DNA of 64,000 nucleotides from Candidatus Nomurabacteria bacterium (lineage in GTDB: Bacteria > Patescibacteriota > Minisyncoccia > Phycocordibacterales > UBA9973): assembly GCA_052035195.1 (NCBI GenBank), contig JBPOHU010000009.1, positions 34,107 to 98,106 of the forward strand, read 5' to 3'. Below the pieces are notes generated by a model. The model was not told the origin of the DNA. It saw nothing but the letters and a program-made list of their open reading frames with translations, and did not search any database. The position numbers and the translations under genes are program-made. Positions within the stretch are counted from its first letter, which is position 1. Every line of letters starts with the position of its first letter. Positions 5,812-25,321 of this stretch are shown piece after piece.

Positions 5812-8280
5812 ATGGCGAAAAAAGCAGAAACCCAGGAAACAATCCCAGAAGAACACGACAAAATTTTGTCGGTTAATATCGTTACCGAAATGCAAAAGTC
5901 ATATATTGACTATGCGATGAGTGTTATCACTGATCGAGCTTTGCCTGATGTTCGTGATGGTCTTAAACCTGTGCACCGAAGAATCTTGTATTCTATGTAT
6001 GAGAGTGGTTTTACTTCAAGTGCCAAGTTCGTAAAAAGTGCGCGTATTGTCGGAGATGTGCTCGGTAAATATCACCCTCACGGAGACACTAGTGTTTATG
6101 ACGCGATGGTAAACCTAGCCCAAGAATTCTCTACTCGTTATCAACTAGTACAAGGTCAAGGTAACTTTGGTTCTATTGATGGAGATGGCGCAGCAGCGAT
6201 GCGTTATACCGAGGCTCGCATGAGTAAGATAGCTAGTGACTTGGTTCGCGATATTGAAAAAAACACAGTTGATTTTCGTCCCAACTATGACGCTACTCGC
6301 AAAGAGCCTAGTGTTTTCCCGACTGCTATACCTAGTCTTTTATTAAATGGAACTCTCGGTATTGCTGTTGGTATGGCAAGTAACATTGCTCCGCACAATC
6401 TCTCTGAGATAGTGGATGCGTGTTTGCATTTGATTGAAAACGATGATGCTACAAATGAAGACTTGGCAGAAATAGTGAAAGGTCCAGACTTCCCAACAGG
6501 CGGACTCGCATTTAACAAAGCAGATATCGTACACGCTCTCTCTACTGGTCGCGGTGGAGTAGTATGTCGTGGTGAATCAGAAATAGCTGAACAAAAAAAC
6601 GGCTCATACCAAATCACTATCACATCACTTCCATATCGAGTTATACGAAGCAACTTCGTAGAATCTATCGCTACACTAGTTCAAGAAAAGAAACTCGAAG
6701 GTATCAAAGGGCTTGAAGATCATTCAGCCAAAGACATGCGTGTTGTGGTCACTTTGAAAAACGGTGTTAACCCACAAAAGGTTCTCAACTATCTATATAA
6801 ACACACACAACTCCAACAAACATTTCACTACAATATGGTGGCCCTAGTAGATGGAGTACCCGAGACTCTTTCTTTGAAGTCTATATTGAATGCTTTTATC
6901 GGTCACAGAGAAGTTGTAGTTAGACGAAGAACAGAATTTGATTTACAAAAAGCCAAAGACCGTGAGCATATATTGCTTGGTTTGAAAAAAGCACTCGACC
7001 ATATCGATCGTGTTATTACCATAATCCGTGAATCAAAAGATGCAGCACTTGCGAAGGTGAACTTGATGAAAGAGTTTAAATTCTCTGACTTACAAGCAAC
7101 TGCTATTTTGGAAATGCGACTTCAGAAGTTGGCTGGCCTTGAGCGAAAAGCTGTAGAACTCGAACTCAAAGAAAAACAAGAACTCATTGCAGAACTCGAA
7201 GCATTGCTCAAGAGTGCCAAGAAAATCTTTGCTGTTATCGCCAAAGAATTGGAAGAAGTAAAAGAAAAGTATGGTGATGAACGCAAAACCAAAATCATGA
7301 ATGGTGGTACAAACATGATCTCTGATGAGGACCTAGTTCCAGAAAAGGAAACAGTACTAGTGTTTACTGCAGGAGGATATGTAAAGCGTACCGATCCAAG
7401 TGAATACAAAGTACAACGCCGAGGAGGTGTAGGAGTGGTAGATTTGGAAACAAAAGAAGAAGACTTTGTTACTCAACTTCTCACCACTGACACTCACAGC
7501 GACTTGCTATTTTTCACCAACAAAGGAAAAGCATACCAAATCAAGATGTACGAACTTCCAGAAGGAAAGCGTGCCACAAAAGGTAAAAGCATCATGAACT
7601 ACCTCTCTCTTGCAGGAGATGAAAATGTTACTTCTATATTAGCTGTTCCAAAATCAGCAAAAGCTGAAAAGGCTTCGCTCATGCTTGTAACCAAAAAAGG
7701 TGTTGCAAAGAAAATCTCATATGAAAGCTTCAAAGACGTGCGTCGTAGTGGAATCATTGCTATTCGTCTTGATGCTGGAGATGAACTAGAAGCAGTACTA
7801 AGAGTACATAAAGGTCAAAGTATTATATTAGCAACATCAGAAGGTCAGTCTATACGTTTTGATGAATCTGATATCCGAGAAATGGGTCGCACTGCTGGAG
7901 GAGTTAGAGCTATGAAGCTTGGTAAACACGACAAACTAATCTGTGCTGATGTCGTAGAAAATGATAAGACTACGGAAGAAAAAAACTATATGCTGGTTAT
8001 GGGAGAAAATGGTATTGGTAAAAAGACTCCTATATCAGAATACAAAGTACAAAAACGTGGTGGCTCAGGTATAAAAACTGCCAAGATAACAACTAAGACA
8101 GGTAAGTTAATGGTTGGGAAAATAGTACAAGACGATATGGAGCTTGTTGCTATGAGTAAGAAAGGTCAAGTAATCAGGGTAGATTTAAATACTATTCCAG
8201 TAAGTGGCCGCCAAACTCAAGGTGTGACTATCATGAAGCTACGAGCAGGGGATACGTTGGCTTCGGTGACGTGTCTATAG
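5812..8280 (+). CDS. gyrA: DNA gyrase subunit A
   Basis: [18 protein letters not shown] motif, active-site Tyr region, C-terminal beta-pinwheel repeats (QxRGGxG), 822 aa. Confidence 0.95.
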
Positions 8281-8524: not shown

Positions 8525-9049
8525 ATGTTCATGAATCCTGCAGTTATGCTTTCGGCATGCAATCTACAAGTAACAGACTCTGTTGCTGATTTTGGTGCAG
8601 GGAGCGGATTCATGGCTCGCGCTATTGCGGGTATTGTTACTAGAGGAGATGTTTTTGCTATTGAAATAAACCGTGACTTAGTAGCACGTATTACTCACGA
8701 AGCAGAGGAAAACAAAATAACAAATCTGCATCCACTATGGGGAGATGTTGAGATACCAGGCGGATCAAAGCTTGGAGATGCAAGTGTTGATGTTGTAGTT
8801 TTTTCAAATATTTTATTTCAACTAGATGATAAGGCTGGAGCTTTGAGAGAAGCATATAGGGTGCTTAAAAATGGAGGGCATTTGTTAGTTGTTGATTGGC
8901 AAGAGTCTTTCAGTGGGCTTGGTCCAGCACCACAACATGTTTTCAATCAAAAGATGGCAGAAGATCTTTTAACTAATTTAGGCTTTACAAAATTATCAGA
9001 TAACTTGCCAGCCGGAGAGCATCACTATGCTATACTTTTTAAGAAATAA
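8525..9049 (+). CDS. Class I SAM-dependent methyltransferase
   Basis: Motif I VADFGAGSGFMA, acidic motif II region, 174 aa. Confidence 0.7.
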   Translation: MFMNPAVMLSACNLQVTDSVADFGAGSGFMARAIAGIVTRGDVFAIEINRDLVARITHEAEENKITNLHPLWGDVEIPGGSKLGDASVDVVVFSNILFQLDDKAGALREAYRVLKNGGHLLVVDWQESFSGLGPAPQHVFNQKMAEDLLTNLGFTKLSDNLPAGEHHYAILFKK

Positions 9050-9077
9050 TCCGCCAACTGGCGGACAAAAATAAAAA

Positions 9078-17091: not shown

Positions 17092-17622
17092 TTAAAGCCC
17101 AATAACGTAAGACTGTTCGTTTTCTGACCGGATTACCTTCAGTACACTTACTTTCCGGGAGTAGTTTTTGATCGGCTGTGGTTGAGCCACATACCATTTT
17201 ACTTCGGAATAAGGGTCCGGTGTATTAGCCCATTGACCCTCAACTTCCAGGACTTTGTAGTGCATAACATTGTCAGATCCCAGGCTACCTTCAATGTAAT
17301 AGGCTGTCGCCTTAAAAGCACTGAAACCGTTGTTGTAAAAGAATCCGATAGCCACATTTTTTCCTTGGCCGGGATCATATTCTACAGCTGCCGGTAAGAT
17401 AGGAATACTGAGAAGGATTCCATCTCCGGTCATTCTTCCGCGGCTGTTGCCGCTGGCATTGATTACAGCTTTAAGATTTTTTACTGTACCGCAGGGCAAC
17501 GTGACTTCCGCCACGCCATTCTCACTTACAGTATTAATAGATATGCCGTATCCATCTTCATATGTTTGCCCGAAAGCAAAAGATGAGGTAATCAGAAAAG
17601 CGAAAAAAAGTATTTTTTTCAT
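17092..17622 (-). CDS. Secreted hypothetical protein
   Basis: N-terminal signal peptide MKKILFFAFLITSSFAFGQ; beta-rich. Confidence 0.5.
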   Translation of the reverse strand: MKKILFFAFLITSSFAFGQTYEDGYGISINTVSENGVAEVTLPCGTVKNLKAVINASGNSRGRMTGDGILLSIPILPAAVEYDPGQGKNVAIGFFYNNGFSAFKATAYYIEGSLGSDNVMHYKVLEVEGQWANTPDPYSEVKWYVAQPQPIKNYSRKVSVLKVIRSENEQSYVIGL

Positions 17623-17718
17623 AAAATTTATTTAATTGTTACAAGATCAATTTCTAGTATATTATAGCAGATTATTAGTTTAATGTCAAGGTACTATAAG
17701 ACTATCTAGAAAATGAGC

Positions 17719-17747
17719 TTGAAAAGGGAAGCGGACTATTGTAGAAT
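17719..17747 (+). promoter_or_regulatory. Sigma-70-like promoter for the tRNA-Leu(TAG) gene (TTGAAA-17 nt-TAGAAT)
   Basis: Near-consensus -35/-10 with 17-nt spacer, ~20 nt upstream of the mature tRNA 5' end. Confidence 0.55.
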
Positions 17748-17768
17748 AAGGGGCATTCTGTACAGCGT

Positions 17769-17850
17769 GCCCGGGTGGCGAAATTGGTAGACGCACCAGT
17801 CTTAGGAACTGGTATCGTAAGATGTGAAGGTTCAAGTCCTTTCTCGGGCA
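17769..17850 (+). tRNA. tRNA-Leu (anticodon TAG), class II with long variable arm
   Basis: Acceptor gcccggg/ctcgggc, anticodon stem ccagt/actgg with loop cttagga, T-arm gaagg-ttcaagt-ccttt; no encoded CCA. Confidence 0.85.
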
Positions 17851-17881
17851 CAGTGTACAGAATGAGTTTTGTTTAAATTAC

Positions 17882-17905
17882 GCGCTTATAGCTTAGTTGT
17901 AGCGG
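17882..17905 (+). pseudogene. Degenerate fragment of the tRNA-Lys 5' half (acceptor + D-arm)
   Basis: gcgcttatagcTtagTtgGtagCGg compared with gcgcttatagctcagctggtagagc of the intact tRNA-Lys 50 nt downstream; cannot fold into a full tRNA. Confidence 0.5.
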
Positions 17906-17953
17906 TTCCACGTGCAATGAGTTCGAAGTTGTGAATTGTAAATTAAATATTAT

Positions 17954-18026
17954 GCGCTTATAGCTCAGCTGGTAGAGCAGCTCCCTTTTAAGGAGACGGT
18001 CGCAGGTTCGAATCCTGCTAAGCGCA
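17954..18026 (+). tRNA. tRNA-Lys (anticodon TTT)
   Basis: 73 nt; acceptor gcgctta/taagcgc, D-arm gctc-agctggta-gagc, anticodon loop cttttaa, T-arm gcagg-ttcgaat-cctgc. Confidence 0.85.
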
Positions 18027-18032
18027 CAAATA

Positions 18033-18062
18033 AAAATAACCCTATGTGGGTTATTTTTATTT
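18033..18062. terminator. Bidirectional terminator (aaataaccc-tatgt-gggttattt) at the centre of a larger inverted duplication
   Basis: Perfect 9-bp stem flanked by A-rich and T-rich tracts. Confidence 0.7.
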
Positions 18063-18390
18063 ATGCGCTTAAGTAAGCAAACTGCTTTGCTTACGTGCAG
18101 GATTCGAACAGCGGAGTCTTAATCCGCCAGCAGGCGGATAGACGAGCTGGTGCCTAGCCCGAGCTGTACGACTGGTACAGTGAGAGGCGAAGGAGAATCC
18201 TGCTTTTACTAATTTGTGGTCACACTATCTTTATTTATTGGTCACGAGTTACTAAGTCTACTCATCCTTCGGCAAGCTCAGGATTCCGTGGACTAAGTAC
18301 TCTCGACCCCGCCTCGCCTGTCTTACAGACATAGCTGTGGCCCACAAAGCTAGAAAAAGTGACGCAGGTTACTTTTTCTTTAACGCTTTG
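18063..18390 (-). ncRNA. ORF-free, highly structured region; candidate novel ncRNA(s) and/or tRNA-derived remnant (see findings)
   Basis: No credible ORF; multiple strong hairpins; contains an inverted partial copy of the tRNA-Lys 3' end, a tRNA-like 9-bp closing helix (gcaggattc...gaatcctgc) and blocks shared with 25121-25252. Confidence 0.35.
18345..18378 (-). terminator. Terminator of the tRNA-Cys/tRNA-Leu(TAA) minus-strand unit (gaaaaagt-aacctgcgtc-actttttc)
   Basis: 8-bp stem followed on the minus strand by U-rich tract. Confidence 0.55.
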
Positions 18391-18473
18391 TGCCCGAGGC
18401 GAGACTCGAACTCGCACGACATTACTGTCTGAGGATTTTAAGTCCTCTATGTCTACCATTCCATCACTCGGGC
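18391..18473 (-). tRNA. tRNA-Leu (anticodon TAA), class II
   Basis: Reverse complement gcccgag..gagga-cttaaaa-tcctc..long variable arm..gcgag-ttcgagt-ctcgc-ctcgggc-a. Confidence 0.85.
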
Positions 18474-18500
18474 AATATTTATATTTTATTGTACTTACAG

Positions 18501-18572
18501 AGGCCTGGGTGGGAATCGAACCCGCGTATAAAGATTTTGCAGATCTCTGCCTTACCACTTGGCTACCAGGCC
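18501..18572 (-). tRNA. tRNA-Cys (anticodon GCA)
   Basis: Reverse complement ggcctgg-ta-gcc-aagtggtaa-ggc..gagat-ctgcaaa-atctt..gcggg-ttcgatt-cccac-ccaggcc; one C:A mismatch in T-stem. Confidence 0.8.
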
Positions 18573-18593
18573 TTTTTTCCGCCAGCTGGCGGA

Positions 18594-18920
18594 TTATCCT
18601 TCTTTAAGGAGTGCGTCTATAGTGTGGCGGGCTTTCTCTCCTTTGTCAATTTCTACATCAATAAAAGGAATGTTTTGCATATTTATCCCTTTTTTGATTG
18701 CAGTGCGAAGTTCGTTTCTTTTTCTTTTTAAGAAATTAATAGCTGACTCTTCACCGCTCTCAGGAAGTACTGAGATATATATAATAGCACTTCGTCCTCG
18801 ATCTAGGACCTCGACACGAGTCACAGTTATTAGTGCTGTTTTATTGCTTTCTCTTTCAATAAAAAGAGCCGCAACTTGTGCTATTTGTCCTTCTATTTTT
18901 TCTTGTTTTCCTGTATCCAT
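18594..18920 (-). CDS. rbfA: Ribosome-binding factor A
   Basis: 108 aa, RbfA-like KH-domain pattern (RVxxxIxxxL..Lxxl..D...TVTRVEV), lies immediately downstream of infB. Confidence 0.8.
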   Translation of the reverse strand: MDTGKQEKIEGQIAQVAALFIERESNKTALITVTRVEVLDRGRSAIIYISVLPESGEESAINFLKRKRNELRTAIKKGINMQNIPFIDVEIDKGEKARHTIDALLKEG

Positions 18921-24995: not shown

Positions 24996-25078
24996 GCGTC
25001 GGTGGTAGAGTGGTCAATTACATCAGACTGTAAATCTGACGCCTTCGGGCTACGCAGGTTCAAATCCTGCCCGGCGCA
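24996..25078 (+). tRNA. tRNA-Tyr (anticodon GTA) with long variable arm
   Basis: Acceptor gcgtcgg/ccggcgc (one G:U), anticodon stem-loop catcag-actgtaaatct-gac, variable arm gccttcgggc, T-arm gcagg-ttcaaat-cctgc. Confidence 0.8.
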
Positions 25079-25082
25079 CAAA

Positions 25083-25124
25083 AACGAAAAAACCTAACTT
25101 TATTGTTAGGTTTTTTCGTTTTAT
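25083..25124 (+). terminator. Strong Rho-independent terminator (aacgaaaaaacctaac-tttatt-gttaggttttttcgtt)
   Basis: 16-bp perfect stem followed by tttta. Confidence 0.8.
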
Positions 25125-25252
25125 GTCTCGCCGAGGAGTAAGCCAACTGCTTGGTTTACGTCAGGATTTTGAAAGGCACAGCGATGCTGATAGGCGAGCG
25201 AGCCGGGGTCGAGAGTACTTATGAGCGAAGCGAATTAGTAACTCGTGACCAA
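25121..25252 (+). repeat. Two conserved sequence blocks (A: 9-bp hairpin + CAGGATT; B: ggcgag..cggggtcgagagtactta...ttagtaactcgtgaccaa) also present in 18063-18318
   Basis: Block A is the same orientation in both loci with a compensatory base change in the stem; block B is inverted relative to A in the other locus. Confidence 0.6.
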
Positions 25253-25321
25253 ATCCTGTTGCAAAAGACTCGAAGGAAAATCCTGCCCTCAAAAAAAACT
25301 AAATGCTATACTTATTTCATA

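Follow-up and report, generated by a model that had tools for sequence, protein, structure and literature searches.

Structured RNA elements with closing stems copied from neighbouring gene ends in a spacer between tRNA genes of a Candidatus Nomurabacteria genome

The Escherichia coli transcripts 3′ETS-leuZ and ITS-metZW are small RNAs (sRNAs) derived from the spacers of tRNA precursors, and the REP/BIME/REPIN, ERIC and Neisseria Correia sequences are textbook intergenic repeats. The block running from the T-loop to the end of the tRNA is said, following an account by Williams of 2002, to be the classical identity block of T-loop-class integration sites, while tandem inversion duplications and quasipalindrome template switching are known from Salmonella and E. 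coli. The locus described here resembles each of these systems in part. It is the 362-nt spacer between a tRNA-Lys(UUU) and a tRNA-Leu(UAA) gene in a 64-kb stretch of DNA from a Candidatus Nomurabacteria bacterium (contig JBPOHU010000009.1; the whole analysed stretch of 64,000 nt is referred to as the window). The preliminary description of this spacer had proposed either a novel lineage-specific non-coding RNA (ncRNA) of the minus strand or a scar of recombination at tRNA-Lys. We are confident that the spacer is made of two convergent (head-on) elements, an intact one (element A) and a degenerate one (element B), of one structured RNA family, named E; it is explained as copies of a family and not as a unique new RNA gene. 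The family is uncatalogued, and what is unusual about it is that the neighbouring gene supplies the template of the closing stem. No description of such elements was found in the literature, which could nevertheless hold one in work beyond the reach of the search.

The layout of E reads, from 5′ to 3′, O_up, hairpin, O′, core and O_down. O_up comprises the last 8–25 nt of the upstream gene plus its trailer, and the second item is either a terminator-like hairpin or a hairpin designated H1. O′ is an inverted and O_down a direct copy of O_up, and these two pair as the closing stem. The type-1 core is a three-way junction of ~80–125 nt with the order AGCCGGAG, hairpin, CGAGGCGGGGUCG, hairpin and GUGACC. 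In the copies behind tRNA-Tyr (window and L002) and tRNA-Leu (L065 and L037), the sequence 5′ of the core is antisense to the 3′ end of the upstream tRNA and the sequence 3′ of the core is a sense copy of it, a hairpin of the GCAAACUGCUUUGC type being often inserted at the acceptor/T-stem boundary of the antisense arm. In long-arm copies, whose O covers the T-loop through to the discriminator, the closing stem has the form of the acceptor/T-stem stack of a tRNA, with the core at the place of the T-loop. The duplicated length ranges from 7 to about 60 nt, and the arms are site-specific, matching the local upstream gene. A type-2 core, with arms and H1 as in type 1, was also observed; in it, a long hairpin is followed by a (G)UACUG-type motif and a small hairpin with a UGUAA-type loop immediately before the sense copy (loci L004, L011, L025, L026, L028, L031, L043, L050, L064 and L070).

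The covariance model R1 was built from the RNAalifold structure of 12 aligned cores, in which compensatory changes were seen at 13 of 18 pairs. A search of the window and 82 related loci with R1 gave 49 copies. In their alignment (A2), 96.6% of the cells were paired, compared to 70.4% in shuffles, double changes were present at 17 of the 18 pairs, and the covariation score reached 0.576, whereas shuffles gave 0.16 and slid partners no more than 0.08. A conserved G·U pair, listed 36 times, marks the structure as strand-specific, and 14 sequences have G·U at a second pair. R1 was also run on 80 of at least 120 pattern-matched metagenome stretches, a sample that was not chosen by locus, and produced 95 copies in these 80 loci among the matches listed. 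Overall, E is typical of Paceibacteria (Patescibacteria, or candidate phyla radiation, CPR), across which it was found, and abundant in metagenomes, so that the RNA is not specific to one lineage as first supposed.

Derivation of the arms from the adjacent gene was quantified on the 90 copies that have a tRNA at a distance of up to 130 nt. Their 3′ flank matched the end and trailer of the adjacent tRNA exactly over a median of 10 nt (at least 15 nt in 36 of the 90 copies), compared to 5.1 nt for other tRNAs; their 5′ flank was antisense to the adjacent tRNA end over a median of 9.5 nt (control, 5.5 nt). For 34 tRNAs, an exact copy of at least 13 nt that starts in the T-loop was found 70–300 nt downstream. 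The few positions that inform on whether O′ copies the tRNA 5′ strand or is antisense to the 3′ strand, judged by eye, point in two directions: the tRNA-Tyr copy of L002 favours the antisense of the 3′ strand, and the −2 base of element B favours the 5′ leader. Inspection by eye gave no consistent co-occurrence of an H1 loop (CUGC) and a long-hairpin loop (GCAG) that could kiss. Many other tRNAs in the loci have antisense matches of 9–18 nt located 20–80 nt downstream.

Among the matches listed, 60 of the 78 assessable metagenome copies (~77%) had a co-oriented tRNA no more than 300 nt upstream, at a median distance of 55 nt and with 25 anticodons represented, and none of the 78 had an opposite-strand tRNA within the same distance. 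The upstream gene may also be of another kind. Two type-1 copies lie ~60 nt behind genes of transfer-messenger RNA (tmRNA), in L136 (3400–3928) and L085 (3681–3106, minus strand); the former carries 22 nt perfectly antisense to the tmRNA 3′ end and is directly followed by a type-2 element. Others start at the stop codons of protein genes and have arms made from the last codons, namely behind rpsI (S9) in two genomes (L102, 4938–5041; L093, 577–471, minus strand), rplL, an AhcY-like and a LexA-like gene. In L093, the last ~14 nt of the rpsI open reading frame (ORF) are duplicated ahead of the hairpin. On the downstream side, the next co-oriented tRNA begins 3–18 nt after the copy in L019, L041, L027 and L023, which leaves no room for a promoter, and the copy of L153 lies between two ORFs, 11 nt before the next ATG. 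Tandem arrays with near-identical cores were found in L144 (five copies), L081/L148 and L050. Housekeeping genes surround the arrays examined and the copies of the window, with neither integrase nor transposase nor reverse transcriptase genes adjoining the arrays, and the inserts of ~100–250 nt contain no ORF. A pattern scan of viral contigs gave a single match, L081, and the neighbours in L148 (Ga0310690_10002005) look cellular. No grouping of the cores by tRNA type was seen: cores behind the same tRNA shared a mean identity of 0.45, those behind different tRNAs 0.46 and those of one genome 0.52, and the nearest neighbour usually stands behind a different tRNA.

Elements A, B and C are the sole R1 matches in the window, three copies beside five tRNAs, and for each, the strand that carries the upstream tRNA gives a fold more stable by 7–13 kcal/mol. 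The core of element A, behind tRNA-Leu(UAA), is an intact type-1 three-way junction (18353–18232, minus strand; R1 69.4 bits, E ~1e-19) in the order AGCC-ACAG, hairpin with a GUAA loop, CGAGGCGGGGUCGAGAG, long hairpin and CUCGUGACC, and its folding energy is −51.8 kcal/mol on the minus strand versus −43.7 on the plus strand. In the first hairpin (18345–18390, minus strand), the tRNA-Leu trailer CAAAGC and its partner GCUUUG enclose an AU-rich stem with the loop AACCUGCGUC. In the minimum free energy structure, the 3′ strand of the closing stem, CCACAAA (18213–18219, minus strand), pairs with UUUGUGG (18348–18342). This arm is a copy of the tRNA-Leu end and trailer, CACAAAG (from GCA followed by CAAAG), and covers discriminator and trailer only; such trailer-based arms also occur in L019, L041 and L052. 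Orthologues of element A scored 78.8 bits (L001) and 73.5 bits (L082) with R1, and a 28-codon ORF within it, inspected by eye, was not conserved in either L001 or L002. The conserved core GCGAGGYGGGGTCGAGAGTAC ... TAACTCGTGACC that stands behind tRNA-Leu(UAA) is present again in the window behind tRNA-Tyr (25163–25258, plus strand), and also behind tRNA-Tyr in L002 and behind tRNA-Leu(UAG) or tRNA-Leu(UAA) in L065 and L037.

Element B (18064–18203, plus strand) lies behind tRNA-Lys(UUU) (17954–18027, plus strand; called by ARAGORN, 72.8 bits with the Rfam tRNA model), whose final ~22 nt, together with the trailer, serve as O_up, the source of its arms. The first part of its 5′ arm O′, TGCGCTTAA (18064–18072), complements the acceptor 3′ strand and the discriminator of tRNA-Lys, and the second part (18097–18109) complements the T-loop and the 3′ strand of the T-stem, with hairpin H1, GTAAGCAAACTGCTTTGCTTAC (18073–18094), placed between them. 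The 3′ arm O_down (18193–18203) is a direct copy of the T-loop/T-stem 3′ part without the acceptor part, the arms thus measuring 9 + 13 nt (O′) and 10–11 nt (O_down). The degenerate type-1 core (18098–18202) reached 20.9–21 bits with R1 (local-search E = 2.3e-6) on the plus strand only, the minus strand of element B giving no R1 match. Its 5′ half (AGCGGAG, hairpin, CGAG) is intact and its second helix has decayed, with non-canonical pairs; the element folds at −67.4 kcal/mol on the plus strand versus −60.4 on the minus strand. H1 of element B is shared with L001, L002, L011, L070, L067, L029 and L081, and its loop AACUGCUU, which recurs in other copies of the family, matches the orientation of E on the plus strand only. 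The first hairpin of the core represents one of three copies of the hairpin TAATCCGCC-NNNN-GGCGGA in the window (9048–9066, 18120–18140 and 18576–18596; 0.01 expected), the other two being directly 3′ of stop codons, one of them that of rbfA.

The features that had been noticed in the spacer are indeed there. The listed repeats are real, at their reported places and beyond chance, and the spacer is highly structured, the whole minus strand having a folding energy of −140.5 kcal/mol (z = −7.76 versus shuffles). It contains no credible ORF: the only ORF of at least 60 aa that reaches it, a GTG-started one of 98 aa (18262–18558, minus strand), runs through both minus-strand tRNA genes. The 9-bp helix GCAGGATTC/GAATCCTGC is present, with a direct copy GAATCCTGCT at 18195–18204. 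The putative bidirectional terminator in an inverted duplication corresponds to an AT-rich palindrome, terminator-like in appearance, at 18019–18071 (24-nt arms 18019–18042 and 18048–18071, 96% complementary, 5-nt loop), the left arm of which is the acceptor 3′ strand of tRNA-Lys plus trailer and the right arm its inverted copy; the palindrome exists, but a simple terminator scan did not call it. A second inverted block (18006–18018 and 18097–18109) is 13 nt long and 100% complementary, and the inserted 22-nt hairpin (18073–18094) stands between the two blocks. This mirrored tRNA-Lys end had been taken for the 3′ end of a minus-strand RNA. Because the 5′ half of the family is kept and R1 matches on the plus strand, it is instead the 5′ strand of the closing stem of element B. 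The postulated structured RNA of the minus strand survives as element A, supported by covariation and kept in L001, L082 and L084, and not as one unit filling the spacer.

Element C, behind tRNA-Tyr (24996–25079), occupies 25080–25290 on the plus strand (25123–25290 without the terminator; R1 74.2 bits) and has an orthologue behind tRNA-Tyr in L002. Its parts follow in the order terminator (25080–25122), 5′ arm (25127–25136), H1 (25138–25159), T-complement (25162–25173), core (25163–25258), proximal 3′ arm (25250–25258) and distal 3′ arm (25277–25290). The proximal 3′ arm has three A's as in tRNA-Tyr, and the distal arm has four, matching the four U's of the 5′ arm, which may represent a compensatory indel.

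Comparison with relatives separated a stable from an unstable side of the spacer. L001, the closest relative (82% identity in IF2), keeps no more than the first ~160 nt of the minus strand behind tRNA-Leu(UAA); these are closed by a terminator of their own, and the 3′ half of the spacer is missing. The strain-level relatives L082 and L084 (~95% identical) keep element A with its hairpin tip replaced; in both, 18037–18155 (the terminator and the 5′ half of element B) is swapped for a cassette with a good type-1 core, and the 3′ half of element B is retained with a compensatory change from CUGUAC/GUACAG to CUGUGC/GCACAG. In close relatives, the variability expected of a scar is seen on the tRNA-Lys side, where element B is absent or replaced at the strain level; element A is conserved. 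Recombination at tRNA-Lys was rightly suspected inasmuch as this side is unstable, yet the inverted plus direct copy is the layout of the family and not a one-off scar. The element behind tRNA-Tyr is present in the window and in L002 and absent in L001 and L003. In L003 (~395–310, minus strand), a perfect terminator stem of 27 bp begins inside the acceptor 3′ strand of tRNA-Tyr and is followed by no element.

Family membership, strand, conserved structure, genomic association, arm derivation and variability are the observations that an interpretation has to accommodate. The one favoured here, with a probability of roughly 0.55, is that the elements are a co-transcribed and processed RNA module located behind gene 3′ ends. 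The element would be transcribed with its upstream gene, as a part of the tRNA precursor or by read-through, and would fold after the upstream RNA's own 3′ end has been engaged. Trimming of the flanking tRNAs by RNase P, RNase Z or exonucleases may then also set it free as a compact RNA, the core of which might have a function in trans. The closing stem would bring the ends together, and in long-arm copies it would probably provide RNase P and the 3′ trimming enzymes with pre-tRNA handles. At the DNA level, direct and inverted repeats so close to each other would favour duplication of the cassette in tandem as well as its deletion or replacement, and the arrays and the strain-level variation would result from this. 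A reading at the RNA level appears likeliest because the covarying structure is strand-specific, the orientation is strict and several copies occur at places where transcription is unavoidable.

Several points weigh against the processed module. Strong terminator-like hairpins stand between the tRNA and the element in many loci, including those of B and C, and would limit co-transcription, and a promoter scan gave no promoter-like site ahead of A or B. A role in processing leaves the exact copying of the neighbour's end, trailer bases included, unexplained, and the same is true of the terminator-like hairpins and of the role of the core. Since the stem is not tRNA-like in the trailer-based and protein-gene copies, tRNA mimicry is not a general principle. 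In a crude count, G·U and A·C pairs in the arms showed no strand bias (17 versus 15). Finally, the pairing counts rest on an alignment fitted to the model and so lean towards structure; the G·U pair and the strand asymmetry of folding energy are independent of this bias.

The main rival, which we regard as possible on the doubtful side, is that E is a non-autonomous mobile cassette whose targets are the 3′ ends of genes, among them those of tRNA and tmRNA; it would enter these through site-specific recombination at the T-loop or through template-switch copying. O_up and O_down would then be a duplication of the attL/attR type, the O′:O_down duplex may imitate the target, and the core would serve propagation and not the host. 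The single-stranded attP of the CTX phage imitates dif. The direct repeats extend from the T-loop (positions ~54–57) to the tRNA end plus 0–8 trailer nucleotides, as does the identity block of T-loop-class integration sites, which favours such a cassette, and the use of tmRNA genes, the arrays with near-identical cores, the replacement at tRNA-Lys between the window and L082/L084, the presence or absence at tRNA-Tyr and the lack of grouping by tRNA type agree with it as well. However, no integrase, transposase or reverse transcriptase was seen beside the arrays examined, and both arms are site-specific, so that they would have to be re-templated at every move; we know of no mechanism that does this. 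Covariation and the conserved G·U pair suit a functional single-stranded molecule and not a double-stranded att site, core-less terminator stems reaching into the tRNA 3′ end exist (L003), and the clustering pattern is equally explicable by gene conversion among dispersed copies.

Rather unlikely, in our estimation, is a self-propagating RNA-gene cassette that attaches to gene 3′ ends and re-templates its closing stem from each target. It could do so by copying with snap-back or template switching, or as a folded single strand mimicking the site that a recombinase recognises, and the three-way-junction core would be the active part, be it a recognition scaffold or a new ribozyme.

It is improbable that the arms and element B are products of passive replication template switching at hairpins, of the quasipalindrome or tandem-inversion-duplication type, in which the snap-back would occur at the T-arm and at the terminator and no selection would act on the arms. 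The sense-antisense-sense junctions do fall at two natural hairpins, the T-loop TTCGAA is itself palindromic, and the third copy runs through the terminator in L070 (61 nt) as well as in L022 and L050; moreover, element B is degenerate and is missing or replaced in close relatives, and a decayed tRNA-Lys duplicate adjoins it. Yet such switching gives no account of a conserved covarying core that always lies between the antisense and the second sense copy, nor of the conserved linkers (AG ... CGU around H1) and the strict co-orientation. Element C has a derived 4-U/4-A state, absent from the tRNA, in both O′ and the distal O_down, which suggests that the stem is maintained.

A single ~330-nt minus-strand ncRNA running from tRNA-Leu(UAA) to the terminator at 18033–18062, with a tRNA-Lys-like 3′ domain (a divergent tmRNA-like or tRNA-ended RNA), is hardly tenable: the low folding energy of the whole minus strand (−140.5 kcal/mol, z = −7.76) and a possible 5-bp helix of GCGUU (18386–18382) with AGCGC (18070–18066) speak for it, but the element of L001 ends after ~160 nt with its own terminator and has no 3′ half, L082 and L084 carry another cassette in place of 18037–18155, the 3′ half fits the family model on the plus strand only, and neither ARAGORN nor Rfam found a tmRNA, although those of L136 and L085 were detected normally.

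Known RNA classes were searched for. With Rfam 15 (tmRNA, RNase P, signal recognition particle (SRP) RNA, 6S and all other families), no match to the spacer was obtained at E ≤ 10 over 17700–18700, which upholds the absence of tmRNA, RNase P and SRP RNA first judged by eye, and at the gathering score no family matched the element in 26 related loci. As to tmRNA, ARAGORN found none in the window, nor did the Rfam tmRNA models (RF00023, permuted) over 17700–18700; as a control, the Rfam tmRNA model gave 100–138 bits in L136 and L085, loci that had been recovered by the core pattern. The acceptor stem of tmRNA requires a G3·U70 pair, and the sole terminal helix of the spacer has 5 bp (G-C, C-G, G-C, U-G, U-A) in which the third pair is not G·U. 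The 5′ strand of a T-stem is missing beside the T-loop, and no plausible tag frame with an alanine resume codon was seen by eye. RNase P RNA of class A was matched at 110 bits in the related locus L057, and the RNase P RNA of the clade is therefore detectable; RNase P, SRP and 6S RNA were rejected for want of an Rfam match, the element being also multi-copy. An extra, intron-containing or split tRNA was called neither by ARAGORN nor by Rfam, and the tRNA cloverleaf is not reproduced, with one hairpin of a 4-nt loop instead of the D and anticodon arms and the core instead of the T-loop. Miniature inverted-repeat transposable elements and REP-like repeats were rejected as well, there being no element-specific terminal inverted repeats and no short fixed target duplication. 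The flanking direct repeat of integrative elements is present, element B retaining only its T part (10 nt), and no integrase or recombinase lies in or next to the inserts of the arrays examined and of the window copies. A primer-binding site was discarded, as O′ pairs with the discriminator and gene-encoded trailer bases and not with CCA, and so was a retro-copy of mature tRNA, as the sense copy has trailer bases and carries CCA only if the gene encodes it.

The window has a GC content of ~37%, and a short IF2 (496 aa), RbfA, DUF4446 and ClpB are encoded around the spacer region; the top relatives of IF2 belong to Paceibacteria/Parcubacteria genomes assembled from metagenomes. Plus-strand tRNA-Leu(UAG) and tRNA-Lys(UUU) converge on the spacer with minus-strand tRNA-Leu(UAA) (18390–18473; ARAGORN and Rfam) and tRNA-Cys (18500–18572), which lies upstream of tRNA-Leu(UAA). 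The degenerate tRNA-Lys 5′ fragment of the preliminary description is confirmed: 17877–17899 is an 87% copy of 17949–17971 (the tRNA-Lys 5′ end). It opens a decayed tandem duplicate (17877–17948, plus strand), which comprises the leader and 18 nt from the 5′ part of tRNA-Lys and, after them, ~50 nt containing a T-loop-like GTTCGAA; the stretch 17900–17948 is missing from L082/L084. Around tRNA-Leu(UAG) there is a 20-nt inverted repeat (17754–17773 and 17845–17864, 90% complementary); leader and trailer would lengthen its acceptor stem by more than 11 bp, resembling a processing stalk of the rRNA type. A 10/12 match to a sigma-70-type promoter (17719–17747, plus strand) lies immediately 5′ of tRNA-Leu(UAG), and a perfect 12/12 match (17689–17661, minus strand) is directed at a 176-aa ORF (17092–17622). 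Many tRNA genes in the window and the loci do not encode CCA, and many trailers start with CAAA or CAAG. Among the related loci, L003 has an inverted duplication (6842–7495) with tRNA-Cys and tRNA-Leu(UAA) each present twice, in opposite orientation, around tRNA-Lys and tRNA-Leu(UAG); in L002 (~7020–7500), an ORF resembling by eye an HNH-type endonuclease (...DHINGN...CPNCH...) lies between tRNA-Cys and tRNA-Leu(UAA); and in L001, two incomplete tRNA-Cys copies are separated by a run of N (6924–7023) that probably reflects a repeat at which the assembly was interrupted.

If the family is as it appears, the very small genomes of Paceibacteria would hold many conserved structured RNA copies fused to the ends of tRNA genes, and a new abundant class of RNA would be at hand for characterisation. 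It would also offer an explanation of the long GC-rich spacers of CPR tRNA clusters, which are otherwise apt to be misannotated as tmRNA-like genes or integration scars. Should a mobile reading hold true, the gain of inverted plus direct copies of the target would be a mechanism undescribed for any known element.

Among the known systems, sRNAs of the 3′ETS-leuZ/ITS-metZW type resemble E as non-tRNA segments behind or between tRNA genes, presumably co-transcribed with them and freed by tRNA end-processing. In comparison, E is a large conserved three-way junction with many copies per genome, lies behind tmRNA and protein genes as well, and carries inverted plus direct copies of the upstream end. 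The REP/BIME/REPIN, ERIC and Correia repeats are likewise multi-copy and intergenic, located at gene 3′ ends or inside operons and co-transcribed with their neighbours, and they share stable stems, strain variation and arrays. They have terminal inverted repeats of their own, whereas each site of E has a different closing stem, taken from the gene next to it. The branched core with its covariation and the tRNA association of ~77% are further differences, and no RAYT-like transposase was seen. With the T-loop-class integrative elements, E has in common the direct repeat from the T-loop to the 3′ end flanking the insert, a tRNA left intact, the use of tmRNA and the arrays. It differs from them in an insert of only ~100–250 nt without an integrase nearby, in the additional inverted copy of the target, and in its occurrence behind protein genes with arms from the last codons. 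The likeness to tmRNA, YrlA/Y RNA and viral tRNA-like structures consists in the long-arm stem, which equals an acceptor plus T-stem stack ending in the discriminator, and in a single hairpin at the point of departure of the D and anticodon arms. In contrast, E has no T-loop, G3·U70 pair, tag frame or match with Rfam or ARAGORN, is present in many copies per genome, and in its trailer-based copies has no likeness to tRNA at all. Tandem inversion duplications and quasipalindrome switching, lastly, likewise triplicate a short segment in sense-antisense-sense order, the junctions lying at hairpins; what sets E apart is the conserved structured core that is always at the second junction, in an arrangement that recurs at well over 100 sites.

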